Shown one piece after another: positions 1 to 42,158 of a stretch of DNA of 53,092 bases (positions are counted from its first letter, which is position 1; each line of letters begins with the position of its first letter). A program made the position numbers and the translations under genes. The notes beneath the pieces were generated by a model. The model was not told the origin of the DNA, did no database searches, and was given only the letters and a program-made list of their open reading frames with translations. Source of the DNA: Escherichia phage ST32; the sequence record NC_047830.1. One strand, written 5' to 3'.

Positions 1-172
1 TTGGATACGGTGAAGGCTGACGTTTGTCAGTTATATGCGAGAAGAGATTCGATGCGTTAGCGTCGTTTCTCTTTGAGCTAGAATAAAACAAGTAAATTAA
101 ATATTTATTTATTCCCAATATTGCTACAATATTAAGAGTAATATTAGGAATGCGTAAAGTCAAAACCAAATG

Positions 173-238
173 GTACATGGTCGGTCAACTGTACCTGGAT
201 AGTAATTCGTTCATGGTCGGTCAGCTGTATCTCGCCGA
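173..238 (+). repeat. two direct copies of CATGGTCGGTCA(A/G)CTGTA (about 173-200 and 211-236); third related copy at 3596-3614
   Basis: repeat read directly from sequence; first copy flanked by inverted GGTAC/GTACC. Confidence 0.6.
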
Positions 239-317
239 AATTTGTTCGAATGGAAAACCGACTATTAAATAATTTTTTTTTATAATTTTTTTTTTATTTC
301 AATATTGCTACAGAATT

Positions 318-401
318 AATGAGACTAGAATTCGTAACAAAGCTACGAGACTCGAATTGTTACGAATTGTTACGATATTAACGAGACTAGAATTGTGGCA
401 A
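318..401 (+). repeat. iteron-like cluster: three copies of GAGACT(A/C)GAATT plus tandem GAATTGTTAC x2
   Basis: direct repeats at about 321, 347 and 383 in the non-coding leader upstream of the RNA polymerase gene. Confidence 0.6.
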
Positions 402-588
402 TATTATAATTTTTTTATTTTGGGCCAGCGGGGAGGGGAAGCCCAACGTCCTATCGGACTTAAAATACGGTCCCTACTCCAACTTTTTCCTACAGCCTAT
501 CGGCTTTCAAACAACACCAAGTTAGGCGCTTCGCTTATGGGTCAAGGTCAAAGTCTCCGTGCTGTTGTAACAATGGCACAGGTTTGTG

Positions 589-606
589 ATATTAGTTGGA
601 AGTGAA
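589..606 (+). promoter_or_regulatory. conserved phage promoter-like motif (ATTAGTTGGAAGTGAA), upstream of RNA polymerase gene
   Basis: member of an 11-copy family with consensus CATTAGTTGGATGTGAA, all in intergenic DNA upstream of + strand genes. Confidence 0.5.
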
Positions 607-672
607 TTGTGTAATGGCTACGCTATTATAATCCGTTTCAGTTAAATCATACACAATCTTGGAGACTTACAA

Positions 673-2613
673 ATGACTACTATCACCACTCAAACTATCA
701 AATCCGTTGTTCCTGCTATCACTGCTCTGGTATACCGTGCCAAAGAGAAACAGAACTATATGCAGCCTCAGACTTGTGCTATTGCTGCCTTAGCCATCTT
801 CAAGATGATGACGTCTTTCACTCGTGATGACGTTGTTCCTGCCATCGCGATGGTTGAGCTGGCTTCTGCTTCTATTGCTGATGCCAACCGTTATAACAAC
901 GATTTGAAAGCAATGCACTATGTTGACCCAGCTATCAACCTCATTGGTCTGGCTAAGCACTTTGGCTTCATTACCATGAACGAAGACAAGTCATTCCAAC
1001 AAACTGATACATGGGTTGAACTGGTTACAACCAAAGACACAGCAGTGCCATTCACTGAACGTGTTACATCTGAATCTCGTCGCAAGCCTTTCGTTAAAGG
1101 TGGCAAAGTTAAGCCATCCAAGACTCTGAAAGCTGCAATCGAATTCCTGCAAGATACTGAGTACCATGTGGAGACTGAGATGGTTCGCATCATCCAGTCC
1201 ATGCTTGAGCAACGTACTTATGGCGGCTTGCAGATGCCAGAAGCAATCCAGACTGAACTCCATGTTTGGAACAATGCTGTAGCAATGATGAATCAGGACA
1301 CGCTGTATTCTGACTACTTTGCTGATAACCGTGGTCGCCTGTATCATGTAGCATGTGCTGGTCCTAACCCACAATCATCTGACTTTGCTCGTTGCTTGTA
1401 TTCTCACAATGTTGAGAACATCGTTAAGAAGTTTAACGAAGATGGTTCTACTACCATTGCATACAACATGTTCATGGCAGAGCTGGAAGATATTTCCGGT
1501 GGTGAATGGTGCAGTGCTAAGCGTCTGACTTATGTTGCTCAGAATCCAGCTGGTTCACTTGCTCGCATGATGAACATGCCTAAAGCTGAACGTCCTTCTA
1601 AGCCATTCACTTATGTTCGTCTGGCTCTGGATTGGTTCAAGTTTGAGACTACAGGTGAATGCGATTCTCGTGTAGGCTTTGGCTTAGATGCTAAATGTTC
1701 TGGTACTCAATATCTGGCATTCATTGCTGGTAACATGGAAATGGCTCGTGCAACAGGTCTGGTTGATTCTGAGACTAAAGCATCTGACCCATACCAGTTG
1801 AGTCTTCGTGAACTGTTGAAGCTGCTGGATAAATCTTCAATGAAGCCATCTCCTGAAATCATGGATGAATTCTTGAATCCGAAAGCTGGTCGTAAGTTTA
1901 TCAAAACTCCATACATGGCTATTCAATATGGTGGTGGTAAAGCTGCATTGACTGGCTCTTCTGACTTCATTAGCTACATGACAGAAGCACTCCAGATTCC
2001 TATGGAGAAAGCTGAGGCATTTGCTGAACTGTGTGTGGAAGCAATCCATAACGCATTGGGTGCTAAGATTAACATGTTCATTGAGAAAGCTGCTGATGCT
2101 GCATACAACCGTTGTGTTGAACTTGGTAAAGAGTATATCACATATCGTCACACTGATGGTCAGGTTGTAATGAAGCCTTGCTTCCCATCTCGTGAAATCT
2201 GTGAGGCATTCAGCATTCGTGTTGATTCTCAAACTCGTGTCATCTTTGGTCAGATTCAGGAGAATAAGCCTTGGACCATTCGTGAATCCAATCCAACTAA
2301 AGAAGAATTCAAGCGTACTTTCGTTGTTAACTACATTCAAGGTATTGATGCACTTGTTGCTCGTACTGTTGCAGTTAAAGCTAAAGAAGCTGGTCTTCGT
2401 GGCTTCACTTCAATCCATGATTGTTTCCGTTGCTGTTTGGCAGATGCTCCACGCATGATGGAAGTTATTCGTGCAGCATATGTTGAAATCTTTGTAACCA
2501 ACAATCAATTCGAGAATCTGTCTAAGCAACTTGGTGGCATTCAGATGTATCATGAGAACATCGTAACCGAAGAGCTTCTGATGAGCGAACACGCTTACTA
2601 CTTCTGCCAGTAA
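673..2613 (+). CDS. single-subunit DNA-dependent RNA polymerase, compact (646 aa)
   Basis: T7 RNAP-like motifs in order: GLDAKCSGTQ (motif A), RKFIKTPYMAIQYGGG (motif B), IHDCFRC (motif C); GGAGA RBS 7 nt upstream of the ATG. Confidence 0.85.
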   Translation: MTTITTQTIKSVVPAITALVYRAKEKQNYMQPQTCAIAALAIFKMMTSFTRDDVVPAIAMVELASASIADANRYNNDLKAMHYVDPAINLIGLAKHFGFITMNEDKSFQQTDTWVELVTTKDTAVPFTERVTSESRRKPFVKGGKVKPSKTLKAAIEFLQDTEYHVETEMVRIIQSMLEQRTYGGLQMPEAIQTELHVWNNAVAMMNQDTLYSDYFADNRGRLYHVACAGPNPQSSDFARCLYSHNVENIVKKFNEDGSTTIAYNMFMAELEDISGGEWCSAKRLTYVAQNPAGSLARMMNMPKAERPSKPFTYVRLALDWFKFETTGECDSRVGFGLDAKCSGTQYLAFIAGNMEMARATGLVDSETKASDPYQLSLRELLKLLDKSSMKPSPEIMDEFLNPKAGRKFIKTPYMAIQYGGGKAALTGSSDFISYMTEALQIPMEKAEAFAELCVEAIHNALGAKINMFIEKAADAAYNRCVELGKEYITYRHTDGQVVMKPCFPSREICEAFSIRVDSQTRVIFGQIQENKPWTIRESNPTKEEFKRTFVVNYIQGIDALVARTVAVKAKEAGLRGFTSIHDCFRCCLADAPRMMEVIRAAYVEIFVTNNQFENLSKQLGGIQMYHENIVTEELLMSEHAYYFCQ

Positions 2614-2633
2614 CAACTATGTGCCAAGGATGG

Positions 2634-2650
2634 CATTAGTTGCATGTGAA
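2634..2650 (+). promoter_or_regulatory. conserved phage promoter-like motif CATTAGTTGCATGTGAA
   Basis: motif family member; 29 bp upstream of the 2679 start. Confidence 0.5.
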
Positions 2651-2678
2651 TCTAATAAAACAATTTGGAGACTTTATA

Positions 2679-2846
2679 ATGTTTACAGTGACCTTAGTAA
2701 CCTATTACGGCAAACAAGTTTGTGAGAAGTTTGAGACTTTAGAAGAAGCAAGAGCTTTTGCAGCTCGTGAAGAGAATATCTATGTAGAGTGTGAAATCAC
2801 TGATGGTGATATGTCATACGAAGTGGTTAAGCCTGCACTCAACTGA
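2679..2846 (+). CDS. hypothetical small protein
   Basis: ORF with GGAG RBS 8 nt upstream of ATG 2679; the track start at 2640 lies inside the promoter motif. Confidence 0.5.
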   Translation: MFTVTLVTYYGKQVCEKFETLEEARAFAAREENIYVECEITDGDMSYEVVKPALN

Positions 2847-2858
2847 TTCCTAATATTC

Positions 2859-2887
2859 GGACAATATTGTTGCATGTAATATTGTCC
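2859..2887 (+). repeat. inverted repeat GGACAATATT-N9-AATATTGTCC with a GCATGT box in the spacer
   Basis: perfect 10-bp arms read from sequence. Confidence 0.6.
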
Positions 2888-2897
2888 CGATATTCGA

Positions 2898-2914
2898 CAT
2901 TAGTTGGATGTGAA
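2898..2914 (+). promoter_or_regulatory. conserved phage promoter-like motif CATTAGTTGGATGTGAA
   Basis: exact consensus copy; no annotated ORF immediately downstream. Confidence 0.5.
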
Positions 2915-3298
2915 GTAAAAGAATACGGAGAAATATTCCGCATGTCATGTTGAATCATTCTAGAAACATTCAGCATGTCAGCTTTGAGTTACAGTGTTGT
3001 AATGATGTGGCAATCATTGAACTCCCTAGGTAGGCCACCTACAGTTCCAGCAACCATGACTTAGAGTAGGAATATCTATCCGAAACTTGGACTTCACCTA
3101 TAGCATGTTCAATTGCGACAATATTGCTCCATCTCCTATTATAAAGGCCCACCCACAAGCCGGGAGATAACTTTGGTAATATTGGAACTTTTGGACATGC
3201 TTCTTTCTTTCAATCAGAATTCGAAAGAAGAGAAGAAGTCGGACAAAGCCGCGAAACTAATCCCGTAGCCCGCCCCGATTTTGAGCAACAAATATTGT

Positions 3299-3310
3299 GA
3301 CAATATTGTC
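3299..3310 (+). repeat. perfect 12-bp palindrome GACAATATTGTC (operator-like)
   Basis: self-complementary 12-mer; related half-sites CAATATTG recur through 2860-3560 and at 110-130, 300-310. Confidence 0.5.
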
Positions 3311-3750
3311 GCAGTATGGCATGTAAATATTGCTACAAATTGGCATGTTGGAATGTGGCAGAATTGTTAGAGGACTAATCACCTCGAAGATACAATCGTC
3401 TACCAATCTGGCATGTTAATTTTGTAACAGTATTTGTGCCAATTTCGCATGTAATAGCTGTATCAGTATTAACCCAATATTCTTGCAACCCGCATGAATA
3501 CTGGCTTCCAGCCAAGCGAAGGCTTTATCATCGCATGTAAATATTGTGACAATATTGGGATAAAACCCTTTATTTAATTAGTTTTATTATGCTGTACATG
3601 GTCGGTTTTCCGTACCTATTGCGCCACTTCTTGATGTGCCAAATACATTCCAAGATAGGAGCAAACCTGTAATTAATGATGCATGTTTAATTGTGACAAA
3701 ATTCGTCTATTTGGCAGATGAGTTAGTTGCAATTAAGCATGTCCATTTAT

Positions 3751-3767
3751 CATTAGTTGCATGTGAA
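3751..3767 (+). promoter_or_regulatory. conserved phage promoter-like motif CATTAGTTGCATGTGAA
   Basis: motif family member; about 190 bp upstream of first early gene. Confidence 0.5.
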
Positions 3768-3958: not shown

Positions 3959-4177
3959 ATGACTCGTTTTAAAGATTTGGAAGATGGTGCAATCTTCTTT
4001 ACGCGTGGTGGAGAACACCTGCAAAAAGTTTTGGAAGATGATATTAATGTAAATGCAGTATTCGTTGGTGATTCTAACATTGGTGTTTTATTAAATGACA
4101 ATGAGAGAACTTTTACCGAGGAGGAGTTTAAAGAAATCTCAGCCTCTGATTTAGTTCAAGAGCCAATTGAAGTTTAA
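3959..4177 (+). CDS. hypothetical early protein
   Basis: ORF with AGGAGA RBS. Confidence 0.55.
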   Translation: MTRFKDLEDGAIFFTRGGEHLQKVLEDDINVNAVFVGDSNIGVLLNDNERTFTEEEFKEISASDLVQEPIEV

Positions 4178-4216: not shown

Positions 4217-4453
4217 ATGAATTACGCGCTGTATCAATACATCAATCGTGACGGTGTTGTTTCTCATGCTTTGGTTAATACTGTAACTAAGGCAGTAATG
4301 TTGGCCGACACGGTGATTTATGGAGAAAGAGGGCGTCTGGTTTGGAAACCTGCTGCACACCCTGAATATGTTTGGCTTGCAATTCAAAATGACAAGCACA
4401 ACAAAATTGTGGCAATGGCTGTTCACCCTCAATTCATTAAAGCACGAGGTTAA
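4217..4453 (+). CDS. hypothetical early protein
   Basis: ORF with GGAGAG RBS. Confidence 0.55.
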   Translation: MNYALYQYINRDGVVSHALVNTVTKAVMLADTVIYGERGRLVWKPAAHPEYVWLAIQNDKHNKIVAMAVHPQFIKARG

Positions 4454-7677: not shown

Positions 7678-7694
7678 CATTAGTTGAGTGTGAA
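7678..7694 (+). promoter_or_regulatory. conserved phage promoter-like motif CATTAGTTGAGTGTGAA
   Basis: motif family member, 20 bp upstream of gene 7715. Confidence 0.5.
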
Positions 7695-7714: not shown

Positions 7715-8197
7715 ATGTACAAATTTAACCCAATGCAAGATGGCATTACGCACATAAATATCTACACTCAAGGAAAGACGCAACTAGGCCGTGCATTGTC
7801 GAATCTATTTGATTGTGAATTTACTGTGCCAGGTTACGGAGATTTTAAGTCTTTGGAGGGATTTTGGTATTACTACCTCACAGGATGTAAGCATGAAGAA
7901 TTAAAATCTCTTGGAGGTTTTGCAGCAAAGAGCTTTGGCAGGAAATTTCCTTTTGACAGAATAGATGAAGAATCTATTGGCCCAGTGGGAGAACAGCGGG
8001 AAGTAATACTTGAAGCAATACGCTGTAAACTGCGACAGAATAAGTGGATTTGTAAGTTGTTGAAAGAATCAGAATTGCCACTGGCACACTACTACGTGCC
8101 TAAAGGAAAAGAGTACTCCATGCAGTATTCAATATCAAAGTTCCAATGGCAGGTCGAAGAATTTGAAAGGTTGAGAAAACTTTTGAAAGGTGTTTGA
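7715..8197 (+). CDS. possible NADAR/YbiA-like domain protein (low-confidence family assignment)
   Basis: GGAGGG RBS; ordered motifs HINIYT, ALSNLF, FKSLEGFWYY, EVILEAIRCKLRQN resemble the YbiA/NADAR fold as I recall it. Confidence 0.55.
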   Translation: MYKFNPMQDGITHINIYTQGKTQLGRALSNLFDCEFTVPGYGDFKSLEGFWYYYLTGCKHEELKSLGGFAAKSFGRKFPFDRIDEESIGPVGEQREVILEAIRCKLRQNKWICKLLKESELPLAHYYVPKGKEYSMQYSISKFQWQVEEFERLRKLLKGV

Positions 8198-8235
8198 TTA
8201 TCAGGGTGCATTTACGAGTGTACCCGAATAATCCA

Positions 8236-8251
8236 ATTAGTTGGATGTGAG
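8236..8251 (+). promoter_or_regulatory. conserved phage promoter-like motif (AATTAGTTGGATGTGAG)
   Basis: motif family member upstream of gene 8323. Confidence 0.45.
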
Positions 8252-8322: not shown

Positions 8323-8700
8323 ATGGCACAATATTCAGATGTAAACACTGGCATTATCGGTCCTAACGGCTTCAAGAAAGACCCAAAACATCCTGACATT
8401 CGTGGACGTATTAACGTTGACGGAATCTGGTATTGGGTATCTGGCTGGAACAAGCAAGCAAATGGTAATGAGTTTACCTCACTTGCATTAACCATCATGA
8501 CCCAAGAACAGGTTGACGAAATGATGCGTAAGCGTGAAGAGAAGGCTAAAGCCAAAGCTCAACCTCAAGCCGCTGCCCAACAGCAACAGCAACGCCAGCA
8601 ACCTTCTGCACAACAGCAAGCACCTGCTCAGCAACAGACGCAGAACAGTAACTACAATCCGAACGAGCCGAAAGACTTCGACGACGACATTCCGTTCTAA
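8323..8700 (+). CDS. small protein with Q/A-rich linker and SSB-type acidic C-terminal tip DFDDDIPF
   Basis: last 8 residues identical to the E. coli SSB C-terminal tip; N-terminal about 70 aa is a possible mini OB fold. Confidence 0.65.
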   Translation: MAQYSDVNTGIIGPNGFKKDPKHPDIRGRINVDGIWYWVSGWNKQANGNEFTSLALTIMTQEQVDEMMRKREEKAKAKAQPQAAAQQQQQRQQPSAQQQAPAQQQTQNSNYNPNEPKDFDDDIPF

Positions 8701-12089: not shown

Positions 12090-12159
12090 TTCCAGGCGGG
12101 TTTCTTCGAAGTGCCAAGCGGGTTTTGTGCTCGCATTGGCCTTCGGCTTTAGTCTGAAA

Positions 12160-12176
12160 CATTAGTGGGATTTGAT
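12160..12176 (+). promoter_or_regulatory. promoter-like motif CATTAGTGGGATTTGAT with upstream TCTGAAA
   Basis: degenerate family member in the ORF-poor region 12090-13091. Confidence 0.4.
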
Positions 12177-12300
12177 TCTGGCCACTTAGGGAAGAAAGGC
12201 ATTATACACTTATCGCCAAATGGGTGTCAAGCACTTTCTTCATTTATTTAATTTTATTCTTATTATTCTTTTTGTTTGGAATATTGGAATAATTCTGAAA

Positions 12301-12317
12301 CATTAATTGGAATTGAA
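12301..12317 (+). promoter_or_regulatory. promoter-like motif CATTAATTGGAATTGAA with upstream TTCTGAAA
   Basis: family member. Confidence 0.4.
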
Positions 12318-12437
12318 TTAGTGTAATTCTGTCTGTACTCTTTTCCACTAGCAATTGTAGAGGAAGTCCACTGCAATAAGCGCAGCCTCAAACAACCAAG
12401 TCTGGACAACTTGGGAAGAGAGTACAGCACAAAATTA

Positions 12438-12454
12438 CATTAGTTGGAATTGAA
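12438..12454 (+). promoter_or_regulatory. promoter-like motif CATTAGTTGGAATTGAA
   Basis: family member. Confidence 0.45.
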
Positions 12455-13091
12455 GAAACAACATCAGATAATAACTTTGTAACTCGGTAGACCGTTGCGG
12501 CCGCATCGTGCGAGAATGTTCAACTCATTCTACAAAGTTATTTTCGATGGAATGTTTCCATCATATACATTTATCTTTTAACATAGGCCAAAAGGGCCAG
12601 AATACTTATTCGCAGAAAAGCTATTCACTTGTTATAGGCGATGTATTGGGATGAATTGGAACTAAATAAGCAAGCTGTTAGGGCTGAATAATTAGAGGGT
12701 TATGCCTCATGCTTATGTTAGTCATTCGAAAATAGGTTTGTGCCACAAGCTGCTGGTGCTCTGAGGAAGTCGGACAAACAGGGCTTAGAGTGGCATAATC
12801 CGCACAAAACCGCGCCACCAGCTATGCCAAAGCAGGTGGATTGGGTGAATGTATTGGGAAGGGTTGCAAAGCCTCTGTGACACGCCTGAGCCGCAAGGCG
12901 ACGACACTCATGTGATTAGCGTATCGCACCCTAACGGGAGTAACCCTTCACCAATGCAGTTATCCAGAATTGACACAAACGGTAGGCAGCGGCCCGATTT
13001 TCGGCCTTCCTGCGCTACCCTGTGGCCTGTTCCTGGGCCAAAAGATGAGAAGAGAAGTCACAAACACTGAATCGAAAATTGGAGAGTTCCT

Positions 13092-13871: not shown

Positions 13872-14546
13872 ATGTCTTATCATGATGATGACAAAGAGAT
13901 TGCACTATCAACGTGTAAGCAATGGCTCAATGATAATGATGCCGTCTATCTTGCCAAGGAAGATGTTATCATTATGTGGGTCCATTTTAATCCAGAATCG
14001 AAGCGCGGTGAGTGGCAACGCTACAAGATGAAAGAGGCTTGTCGCATAATTAAAGCCACACGCGCTGGCTTCTCTGCCATGAAATATATTAAGCCGGAGA
14101 TGCTGATGCTTGCTGCACAGGAAGAAGAACGTGCATATAAGCAGGCTGTTAAATCTCGTTCAACTGTTCCTCCAGAGTTCTTTAATTTGGAGCGCGCTGG
14201 ACACTTCAACAATTTAGAAATGTTGACACTGTGCCTGTTGCAAGAATTAGTTGGAAGAGGACAAAACATTGAAGCTGTTTGTCTTGGAGAACTCATGAAA
14301 GAGTTGTTCTTGGCAAAGGGCTTTGCTGTGCCAAACCGAACTTTACGCTGGAAATTGTTGCGAGCAGTCGCGCAAGAAGCTGGTGTAGTTGTTCGTGACA
14401 GAACTAACCGACTTACCGTAACAGGAGTTGGGCGTTTTGTAGCAATCCAGATTGAGGGTTATGACGAATCAATCATCACTGAACTCACTGTCGCTGAGAC
14501 AAAGGATTTAGTAAATAAAACACTAGAACGATTCAATAGATATTGA
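13872..14546 (+). CDS. hypothetical protein (224 aa)
   Basis: long ORF, ATG start. Confidence 0.6.
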   Translation: MSYHDDDKEIALSTCKQWLNDNDAVYLAKEDVIIMWVHFNPESKRGEWQRYKMKEACRIIKATRAGFSAMKYIKPEMLMLAAQEEERAYKQAVKSRSTVPPEFFNLERAGHFNNLEMLTLCLLQELVGRGQNIEAVCLGELMKELFLAKGFAVPNRTLRWKLLRAVAQEAGVVVRDRTNRLTVTGVGRFVAIQIEGYDESIITELTVAETKDLVNKTLERFNRY

Positions 14547-14576: not shown

Positions 14577-14594
14577 CATTAGTTGGATGTGGAA
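14577..14594 (+). promoter_or_regulatory. conserved phage promoter-like motif CATTAGTTGGATGTGGAA with upstream TTCTGAAA
   Basis: family member, 75 bp upstream of gene 14670. Confidence 0.5.
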
Positions 14595-14669: not shown

Positions 14670-15008
14670 ATGGCTAAGATTGTAACCGTAACTCAGTACG
14701 AAGCTAACGATGGTTCCCTGTTCCTGACCGAAGCAGAGTGTAATGCACATGACTTCAAACTGGAAAACGGTGCTAAAATTGAGAAAGCTGCCGAAGCGTA
14801 CCTGAACACCGTTGGCGCTATCGACCGTTCTCGCTCCATGCAGAAGAACACCATCGAGCAGTTCCTGGCATTCTACCTGCCGTGGGTTGAAGCTGGTGAG
14901 CCGGAAGTTGAGCGTACTAAGTTCGATACCCCGAAAGAAGCTAAAGTTGCTGACGCAAGTGTTGCTGATGCAGCAGAAGCTGCTGTTGAAGAAGCTCCGG
15001 TATTCTAA
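14670..15008 (+). CDS. abundant acidic protein, function unknown
   Basis: strong AAGGT RBS; codons of the highly-expressed E. coli type (CTG, CCG, CGT, GAA), unlike neighbours; promoter motif upstream and hairpin downstream. Confidence 0.7.
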   Translation: MAKIVTVTQYEANDGSLFLTEAECNAHDFKLENGAKIEKAAEAYLNTVGAIDRSRSMQKNTIEQFLAFYLPWVEAGEPEVERTKFDTPKEAKVADASVADAAEAAVEEAPVF

Positions 15009-15908: not shown

Positions 15909-16003
15909 GGACGAGTAGCTCAGAAGGTTTGCATTGTGCTCAGTCAGGTAGAGCAATCTGTTCGACAGATGTGTCGTTGGTTCGAATCCAACCTCGTCCG
16001 CCA
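15909..16003 (+). tRNA. tRNA-like gene, non-canonical (anticodon possibly UCG, Arg); may be a pseudo-tRNA
   Basis: 7-bp acceptor stem GGACGAG/CTCGTCC, T-arm GTTGG-TTCGAAT-CCAAC, encoded CCA; but a roughly 20-nt insertion (AGAAGGTTTGCATTGTGCTC) sits in the D-arm and the anticodon arm is ambiguous. Confidence 0.55.
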
Positions 16004-22109: not shown

Positions 22110-22381
22110 TGAAAACTGTATATTCTATTTTTGATGTACAGGAATCAGAGCACCACATGTTTGCTACCGATTCCGAAGTTCTCGCAAAGGACGCTGTAAT
22201 TGCGTTCCTTGAAAAGATTAAGGACAAAGTTTTCGCTTCGTCCGACCCACAGTCTCAAGCATTTAACGATGAGACATTTAAAAGCCTCCAAACTTTAATT
22301 TCGGCAACGTCTTCATTTGAAGAGCTGTCCGAAGCATTAGTTGGATATGACTTCCGACTTGCTATGTTGCAGGTCGACTAA
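22109..22381 (+). CDS. hypothetical protein
   Basis: ORF, TAATG overlap. Confidence 0.5.
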   Translation: MKTVYSIFDVQESEHHMFATDSEVLAKDAVIAFLEKIKDKVFASSDPQSQAFNDETFKSLQTLISATSSFEELSEALVGYDFRLAMLQVD

Positions 22382-42141: not shown

Positions 42142-42158
42142 CATTAGTTGAATATGTA
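42142..42158 (+). promoter_or_regulatory. promoter-like motif CATTAGTTGAATATGTA
   Basis: family member, 24 bp upstream of gene 42182. Confidence 0.4.

Follow-up and report, generated by a model that had tools for sequence, protein, structure and literature searches.

The window analysed here is the entire genome (53,092 bp) of Escherichia phage ST32 (Carltongylesvirus, Chaseviridae; NC_047830.1). Its first gene encodes a compact RNA polymerase (RNAP), and the genome also carries a family of 17-bp sites that are candidate promoters for this enzyme. The gene occupies positions 673..2613 of the + strand, starts with ATG and encodes a protein of 646 amino acids (aa), for which we computed a mass of 72.7 kDa and an isoelectric point (pI) of 6.09. 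It is orthologous to gp01 of phage phiEcoM-GJ1 and identical in coordinates, length, mass and pI to the published open reading frame 1 (ORF1) of ST32 (Liu et al., 2018, PMC6266442). The next ST32 ORFs in that publication (2640-2846, 3959-4177 and 4217-4453) also agree with the coordinates of the window, as does its tRNA (15,909-16,003). A Shine-Dalgarno-like TGGAGA (660..665, + strand), which is likewise given in Table 2 of PMC6266442, lies 7 nucleotides (nt) 5' of the ATG. Nine codons upstream of the ATG an in-frame TAA (643..645, + strand) closes the frame, and the leader is therefore not translated as part of the protein.

Within the leader, which spans some 600 nt, a sigma-70-like promoter (TTAACG-18-TATTAT; 378..407, + strand) has its homolog in the annotated host promoter of phiEcoM-GJ1, and the RNAP gene is probably transcribed from it early on. 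Consensus scans for sigma-70 promoters and terminators showed no enrichment over shuffles, and the sigma-70 scan served only to place this host promoter. ST32 is about 94% identical at the DNA level to other Carltongylesvirus phages and about 89% identical to phiEcoM-GJ1, in which gp01 has the same first-gene position and is accompanied by the same annotated promoter motif; wherever a relative is annotated, the gene bears the label RNA polymerase. The ST32 enzyme is the hallmark RNA polymerase of the Chaseviridae, a known gene family. Since gene and candidate promoter are both published, their value as a discovery is low.

Catalytic motifs and fold of the ST32 polymerase

The protein is recognized as a T7-type enzyme by Pfam RNA_pol (PF00940; residues 323-621, 66 bits where the cut-off is 22, E=3.7e-18), which places it in the family, and by the 'RNA polymerase' profile phrog_414 (E=8.6e-98). 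The catalytic motifs follow one another in the expected order on the + strand. In the T/DxxGR motif (1324..1338), D218, R220 and R222 correspond to D421, R423 and R425 of T7 RNAP; motif A (residues 334-347, 1672..1713) contains the catalytic D339, equivalent to T7 D537; in motif B (residues 405-422, 1885..1938), R407, K411, Y419 and G420 match T7 R627, K631, Y639 and G640; and motif C (residues 577-587, 2401..2433) provides H582 and D583, the counterparts of T7 H811 and D812. None of these residues varies among the 38 sequences of an alignment extending down to 36% identity.

An AlphaFold2 model built on the same alignment reached a mean predicted local distance difference test score (pLDDT) of 91 and a predicted template modelling score (pTM) of 0.87, and is confident from residue 4 onwards. 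When the model was compared with the PDB using Foldseek, the best match was T7 RNAP (3e2e_A; E=1.6e-18, probability 1.00, TMq 0.60), and mitochondrial RNAP of yeast and human came next (E about 1e-14 to 1e-16). At the level of sequence and predicted structure, these results confirm that ORF 673..2613 encodes a T7-type single-subunit RNA polymerase in which every catalytic motif is intact. An earlier reading of the locus made from its letters alone (the sequence-only reading) had proposed a compact enzyme of this type with motifs A, B and C in order, and Pfam, phrog_414, the 38-sequence alignment and the structural comparison all agree with it. It had also placed motif A near residue 336, as against 537 in T7. 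The implied shift of about 200 residues holds, since motif A is displaced by 198 residues (and motif C by 229); the aspartate itself is D339.

The compact clade and the residues missing relative to T7

The short length is shared by the relatives of the ST32 enzyme. Close homologs (119, down to 35% identity) are mostly 626-670 aa long; identity to other Carltongylesvirus RNAPs is 92-99.8%, with 92% to phiEcoM-GJ1 gp01 and 99.8% to the RNAP of vB_EcoP_Bp7. An exhaustive profile search returned 2,305 representatives at E<=1e-3. At E<=1e-30 these form 110 clusters (50% identity) of mostly 600-760 aa, and T7-length proteins enter only from E about 1e-22, with their residue about 270-370 onward corresponding to residues 140-205 of the query. 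Phage records with an RNAP match are Chaseviridae-type in 107 of 107 cases, and clade-wide conservation extends to the N-terminal residues (KSVVPxI...). Judged from these comparisons, the compact form is conserved throughout the Chaseviridae and a large metagenomic clade, and short length is a family trait.

Direct comparison of the compact-clade hidden Markov model with T7 RNAP aligned only the core, and the N-terminus was mapped instead by aligning the compact-clade profile with a profile of 25 T7-length RNAPs (T7 and 24 representatives). In this profile-profile alignment residues 9-645 correspond to T7 106-883 (probability 100, E=7e-41), confidently so from about residue 85 onward. Residues 86-125 align to T7 about 205-265, a helix, beta-hairpin, helix arrangement, and residues 135-180 to T7 290-345. 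There is a gap of about 38 residues in the thumb, and the fingers are about 28 residues shorter than those of T7. Consistent with this, residues 16-645 cover positions 154-816 of the phrog_414 profile, as compared with positions 2-816 for T7 residues 30-883. The profile alignments give no counterpart for T7 residues about 1-105. Pfam RPOL_N (PF14700), which scores 120.7 bits with T7 RNAP itself, was undetected in residues 1-206 even at E<=10. No counterpart was found for the AT-rich recognition loop (T7 93-101) in an alignment that begins, with low confidence, at T7 106, and an unrelated element may substitute for it. Subdomain H appears to be represented at best in part.

The N-terminal region is nevertheless folded in the models. 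About 150 N-terminal residues are kept, with pLDDT values of 86-91 (86 in a separate model of residues 1-148), and residues 1-148 (673..1116, + strand) are predicted to form a miniaturized N-terminal domain with a winged-helix-like fold. Its predicted secondary structure comprises helices at residues 6-27, 32-46, 57-73 and 87-97, a beta-hairpin at 100-110 and a further helix at 112-118. The Foldseek matches of this isolated region are weak and nearly all of them are winged-helix domains, which suggests that a small folded module of a DNA-binding type has been kept. The hairpin at residues 100-110 (970..1002, + strand) aligns with moderate confidence to T7 about 229-246, where the T7 hairpin has 9 residues more. 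On the basis of alignment and model, the 'wing' of the module is therefore a candidate for the segment equivalent to the T7 intercalating hairpin. In the C-terminal half, residues 505-548 (2185..2316, + strand) align to T7 about 736-775. Beta-strands are predicted at residues 506-510, 513-516, 522-525 and 534-537, and the length of the region is close to that of the T7 specificity loop (739-770). The model thus indicates that the specificity-loop hairpin is kept, with a predicted role in promoter reading.

Compared with T7 RNAP (883 aa; PDB 1CEZ, 1QLN and 3E2E), the ST32 enzyme has the same right-hand fold, T/DxxGR motif, motifs A, B and C and C-terminal aromatic tail, and it retains a candidate specificity-loop hairpin and the region of T7 about 205-345. 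Unlike T7 RNAP it is encoded in a myovirus genome, is 237 residues shorter and lacks a detectable RPOL_N, in addition to the shorter candidate intercalating hairpin, the thumb and the fingers. It is about a quarter smaller than the T7 enzyme because the DNA-binding front end and the thumb have been miniaturized. The deficit of about 200 residues before motif A is real in the alignments and the model, yet it does not amount to a clean loss of the N-terminal domain. The sequence-only reading had regarded the promoter-binding N-terminal domain as lacking, which is correct insofar as RPOL_N is undetected, and too strong insofar as some 150 residues remain as a winged-helix-like module. Its attribution of the whole deficit to the N-terminus is not supported as it stands, about 38 of the missing residues belonging to the thumb, and the predicted specificity-loop hairpin is kept. 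Neither of the two findings that would have overturned that reading was made: the in-frame TAA at 643-645 closes the leader, and T7-type N-terminal profiles matched no second ORF in the whole genome (best E of 0.06 among 614 six-frame ORFs).

Several further observations were made on members of the clade. Some metagenomic members carry N-terminal extensions of 100-250 residues, and in three that we examined (P0092, P0115 and P0113) the extension is of low complexity, N/T-rich or acidic. Four members with N-terminal extensions (P0092, P0121, P0133 and P0141) were scanned against Pfam and none matched RPOL_N, for which a T7-length control (P0231) scored 71 bits in the same scan. The 704-aa cluster representative P0001, 98% identical to the ST32 enzyme, has a 58-residue N-terminal extension without counterpart in the ST32 frame, which is probably an upstream ORF fused in a permuted assembly. 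Homologs of the compact RNAP were also found in chromosomal prophages of Pseudomonas brenneri (CP122540.1) and Hafnia alvei (NJFP02000002.1). In the former, myovirus baseplate and lysis genes are followed by the RNAP gene, small early genes and an integrase adjoining host genes; in the latter, a weak integrase match lies upstream of holin and hydrolase genes, and these in turn precede the RNAP gene. It follows that integrated relatives of the 'strictly lytic' Chaseviridae exist. In other relatives (Myduc, 1-3202, and by annotation Mangalitsa and 4HA13) the RNAP gene falls within a long direct terminal repeat predicted by PhageTerm, and virion DNA would therefore hold two copies of the polymerase gene. 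Finally, 'Staphylococcus phage Pel53' (PP952070.1; host S. hyicus) shares 88% DNA identity and 93% RNAP identity with the coliphage group, which suggests a misassigned host or contamination.

The 17-mer family

A 17-mer with the consensus CATTAGTTGGATGTGAA occurs 12 times in the window at <=3 mismatches, whereas 0.25 matches are expected and none of 100 shuffles gave more than 2. All 12 copies are on the + strand and 11 of them are intergenic, even though ORFs fill 89% of that strand. The information content is limited to the 17 positions of the motif, and CATTAGTTG is the commonest 9-mer in the genome. This excess, together with the placement of the copies on one strand and between genes, strengthens the case made in the sequence-only reading for the motif as a candidate promoter of the polymerase. 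With its 17 bp, its opening ATTA and its A-rich 3' end, the ATTA...TGAA layout resembles the promoters of the T7 group (T3, SP6 and K11), which offers a lead.

A weak copy (TATTAGTTGGAAGTGAA) at 590..606 precedes the RNAP ATG by 67 nt, at a position that is also occupied in Erwinia phage Y2 (188) and Proteus phage Myduc (173); the polymerase may therefore boost expression of its own gene, unlike the case of T7 gene 1. A copy with one mismatch (2634..2650) directly follows the RNAP stop codon. The exact consensus at 2898..2914 and the copies at 3751..3767 and 8235..8251 correspond to 'putative phage promoter' 1, 2 and 3 of phiEcoM-GJ1, respectively, the last being located before a gene annotated as encoding a single-stranded DNA-binding protein (SSB). 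Others are found 21 nt 5' of the ORF at 7715..8197 (7678..7694), between the ORFs at 13872..14546 and 14670..15008 (14577..14593), 3' of the DNA polymerase gene within a small ORF (22335..22351), and between the gene for a 1241-aa tail fibre and the next structural gene (42142..42158). The remaining three (12160..12176, 12301..12317 and 12438..12454) share an ORF-poor stretch.

The distribution of the motif follows that of a polymerase subclade. In Erwinia phage Y2 (RNAP 71% identical) the 17-mer is present at syntenic sites, as it is in Proteus phage Myduc (66%), where positions 10-12 are changed, and in the Hafnia alvei prophage (52%) it is the top repeated 11-mer. Neither Vibrio phage VPs20 (Nefertitivirinae) nor the Pseudomonas brenneri prophage has it, and in both of these the specificity loop differs. 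Within the subclade that shares the 17-mer, the specificity-loop sequence is nearly constant, in contrast to the subclades without the motif. Counting of k-mers in VPs20 and the P. brenneri prophage gave no convincing alternative motif, and the co-variation of promoter and specificity loop is for this reason only qualitative.

The 17-mer corresponds to the 'putative phage promoter' of phiEcoM-GJ1, reportedly annotated by Jamalludeen and colleagues in 2008. The same 20-mers are annotated in the records of phiEcoM-GJ1 and vB_EcoM_SA91KD (NC_010106 and OL960574). Consensus promoters for a Chaseviridae-type RNAP have also been described for phage PP101 and in a review (PMC6989608, PMC8472413). A survey of T7-like promoter specificity (Nucleic Acids Research, 2025) leaves the Chaseviridae RNAP family unmentioned.

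Other elements were observed near the motif copies. In the ORF-poor stretch (12090-12850) the three copies stand in tandem about 140 nt apart, and for two of them SA91KD carries a promoter annotation. This stretch matched no Rfam family, and the tRNA was all that Rfam found. This 95-nt tRNA at 15909-16003 is called tRNA-Leu (anticodon CAG) by ARAGORN, as against tRNA-Arg in the ST32 paper (PMC6266442); its length suggests a class II tRNA with a long variable arm, for which Leu fits better. Elements resembling AATATTGCTACA cluster at 100-420, in the leader, and at 2860-3560, in the 1.1-kb ORF-free region after gp02. Genome-wide they give 20 matches at <=2 mismatches, compared with 6.6 expected, and the palindromes TGTCACAATATTGTGACA at 3291-3307 and 3540-3556 are found among them. 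These elements may be host promoters or operator sites.

Proposed promoter recognition by a compact polymerase

Taken together, we consider it likely that ST32 encodes a functional, miniaturized T7-family RNAP of the phiEcoM-GJ1 gp01 type, which transcribes from the 17-bp promoters and reads them with its specificity loop and winged-helix module. Host sigma-70 RNA polymerase would transcribe the RNAP gene from promoter-like sites in the leader. The 73-kDa enzyme would then transcribe the remaining genome, all of it on the + strand, using some dozen 17-bp promoters that precede blocks of genes. As in T7, an early polymerase gene would thus serve a one-strand genome from promoters of 17 bp. Catalysis would be carried out by the canonical palm and fingers. 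Promoter reading would most likely fall to the specificity-loop beta-hairpin (about residues 505-548) together with the winged-helix-like module (about 30-120), whose wing (100-110), the candidate counterpart of the T7 intercalating hairpin, would lie at the upstream edge of the bubble and mark it.

Several points weigh against this interpretation. No experiment connects the ST32 RNAP with the 17-mer, and we found no biochemical report of promoter-specific RNA synthesis by a gp01-type enzyme in the literature searched. According to the ICTV profile of the family, promoters of the Chaseviridae 'have not yet been identified' (PMC12842549). The only characterized T7-type enzyme with a comparable truncation, N4 RNAPII, binds only single-stranded DNA (ssDNA) and needs gp1 and gp2 (PMC4496689). 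With regard to the N-terminal module, residues 1-85 align to T7 106-185 with low confidence only, and Foldseek returned nothing significant for the isolated model, with T7 outside the top 50 matches. Moreover, a T lies directly 3' of the motif at 8 of the 12 sites, which would be unusual at +1 of T7-type promoters and makes the transcription start site uncertain.

Other explanations for the short polymerase concern its gene, its subunits and its partners. That the length is an artefact of a mis-called start or a degraded gene might be suspected from the variation in annotated starts, at 655 in phiEcoM-GJ1 (648 aa by the length of the coding sequence) and 749 in SA91KD, and from the 704-aa database representative; Table 2 of PMC6266442 gives an 'aligned protein size' of 648 for phiEcoM-GJ1. 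This explanation is refuted by the in-frame stop nine codons 5' of the start and the invariant catalytic residues, to which the conserved N-terminus, the confidence of the model from residue 4 and the failure of the 58-residue extension to find a counterpart in the ST32 frame may be added, and we give it practically no weight. Scarcely more probable is a split polymerase, in which another ORF would contribute the missing N-terminal domain as a second subunit. Split T7-type enzymes have a precedent in N4 RNAPII, and some database matches of 280-420 aa cover half of the profile, although these may be contig fragments. We reject this possibility, since no six-frame ORF of the complete genome was matched by a profile of T7-type residues 1-110, 1-200 or 1-325, and a length of 630-660 aa is conserved across the family. 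A more serious alternative, if still a rather unlikely one, is that the cut-down N-terminal domain and thumb cannot bind or melt duplex promoters alone, and that a phage or host protein, by itself or with the enzyme, supplies part of the recognition of the 17-mer. N4 RNAPII, which is among the smallest enzymes in the family, has both truncations, and at 673 aa in total (gp15, 269 aa, and gp16, 404 aa) is inactive on duplex DNA without gp2 (PMC4496689). In both it and the ST32 enzyme, about 220-230 residues separate the N-terminus from the T/DxxGR motif. The mitochondrial RNAPs Rpo41 and POLRMT, which share the T7-type core and are the second-best structural matches, differ from the ST32 enzyme in their much larger size and their N-terminal extensions, and they too rely on extra elements for melting, namely Mtf1, or TFAM and TFB2M (PMC4496689, Table 1). 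Neither the AT-rich recognition loop nor RPOL_N is detectable in the ST32 enzyme, and some 15 conserved promoter positions would exceed the usual reach of a single specificity loop. A speculative candidate for such a cofactor is the atypical SSB-annotated protein (125 aa; 8323..8700, + strand) behind a consensus promoter. Apart from the RNAP, no other early-region protein is shared by all of the six compared genomes, which reach down to about 35% RNAP identity, and it matches phage-specific PHROGs only, with no Pfam SSB or OB match; its conservation would, however, be expected from replication alone. Homologs of N4 gp1 and gp2 were not found by phmmer among all six-frame ORFs (best E=0.22 and 1.6), although a structurally analogous cofactor may be present. 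In contrast to the single 646-aa chain and long motif of ST32, N4 RNAPII is a heterodimer with short, AT-rich promoters (-7 to +2). The N4 subunits also score better against T7-length profiles than against the compact clade (76 bits as against 18-38 bits for gp16), which argues that the two truncations arose in parallel and not by shared ancestry. Finally, a folded winged-helix module and the hairpin are kept in ST32.

The 17-mer could instead serve another regulator, such as a host factor or a phage repressor or activator, or it could be a signal for RNA processing. The literature lacks transcription start data for the motif (PMC12842549), three copies cluster at 12.1-12.5 kb where ORFs are few, and one copy precedes the RNAP gene itself. 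Against this, the sites are one-stranded, intergenic and upstream of genes, and the motif has neither dyad symmetry nor the hexamer architecture of sigma-70 promoters. It also co-occurs with an RNAP subclade, is gone where the specificity loop differs, and resembles T7-group promoters in length and layout. We therefore regard a different regulator as improbable, and retain as more likely the view that the 17-mers are promoters read by the ST32 polymerase.

The N-terminal domain of T7 RNAP first binds the promoter and afterwards undergoes massive refolding into the RNA exit path. We suggest, more tentatively than the reading of the 17-mers itself, that the ST32 enzyme may be self-sufficient and promoter-specific with only about 150 N-terminal residues. 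If so, the winged-helix module and the specificity loop would replace the AT-rich loop, the six-helix promoter-binding domain and subdomain H. Duplex recognition, melting and the refolding from initiation to elongation would then be possible with an apparatus far smaller than that of T7. Were the enzyme autonomous, its architecture would be a minimal one for promoter-specific transcription, and its 1.9-kb gene and 17-bp promoter would make up a compact pair orthogonal to T7, T3 and SP6. If a cofactor is needed, the paradigm of N4 RNAPII would extend to a second phage family. In either case, over 100 sequenced phages, along with a large metagenomic clade, get by with a short thumb and under half of the T7 N-terminal domain.

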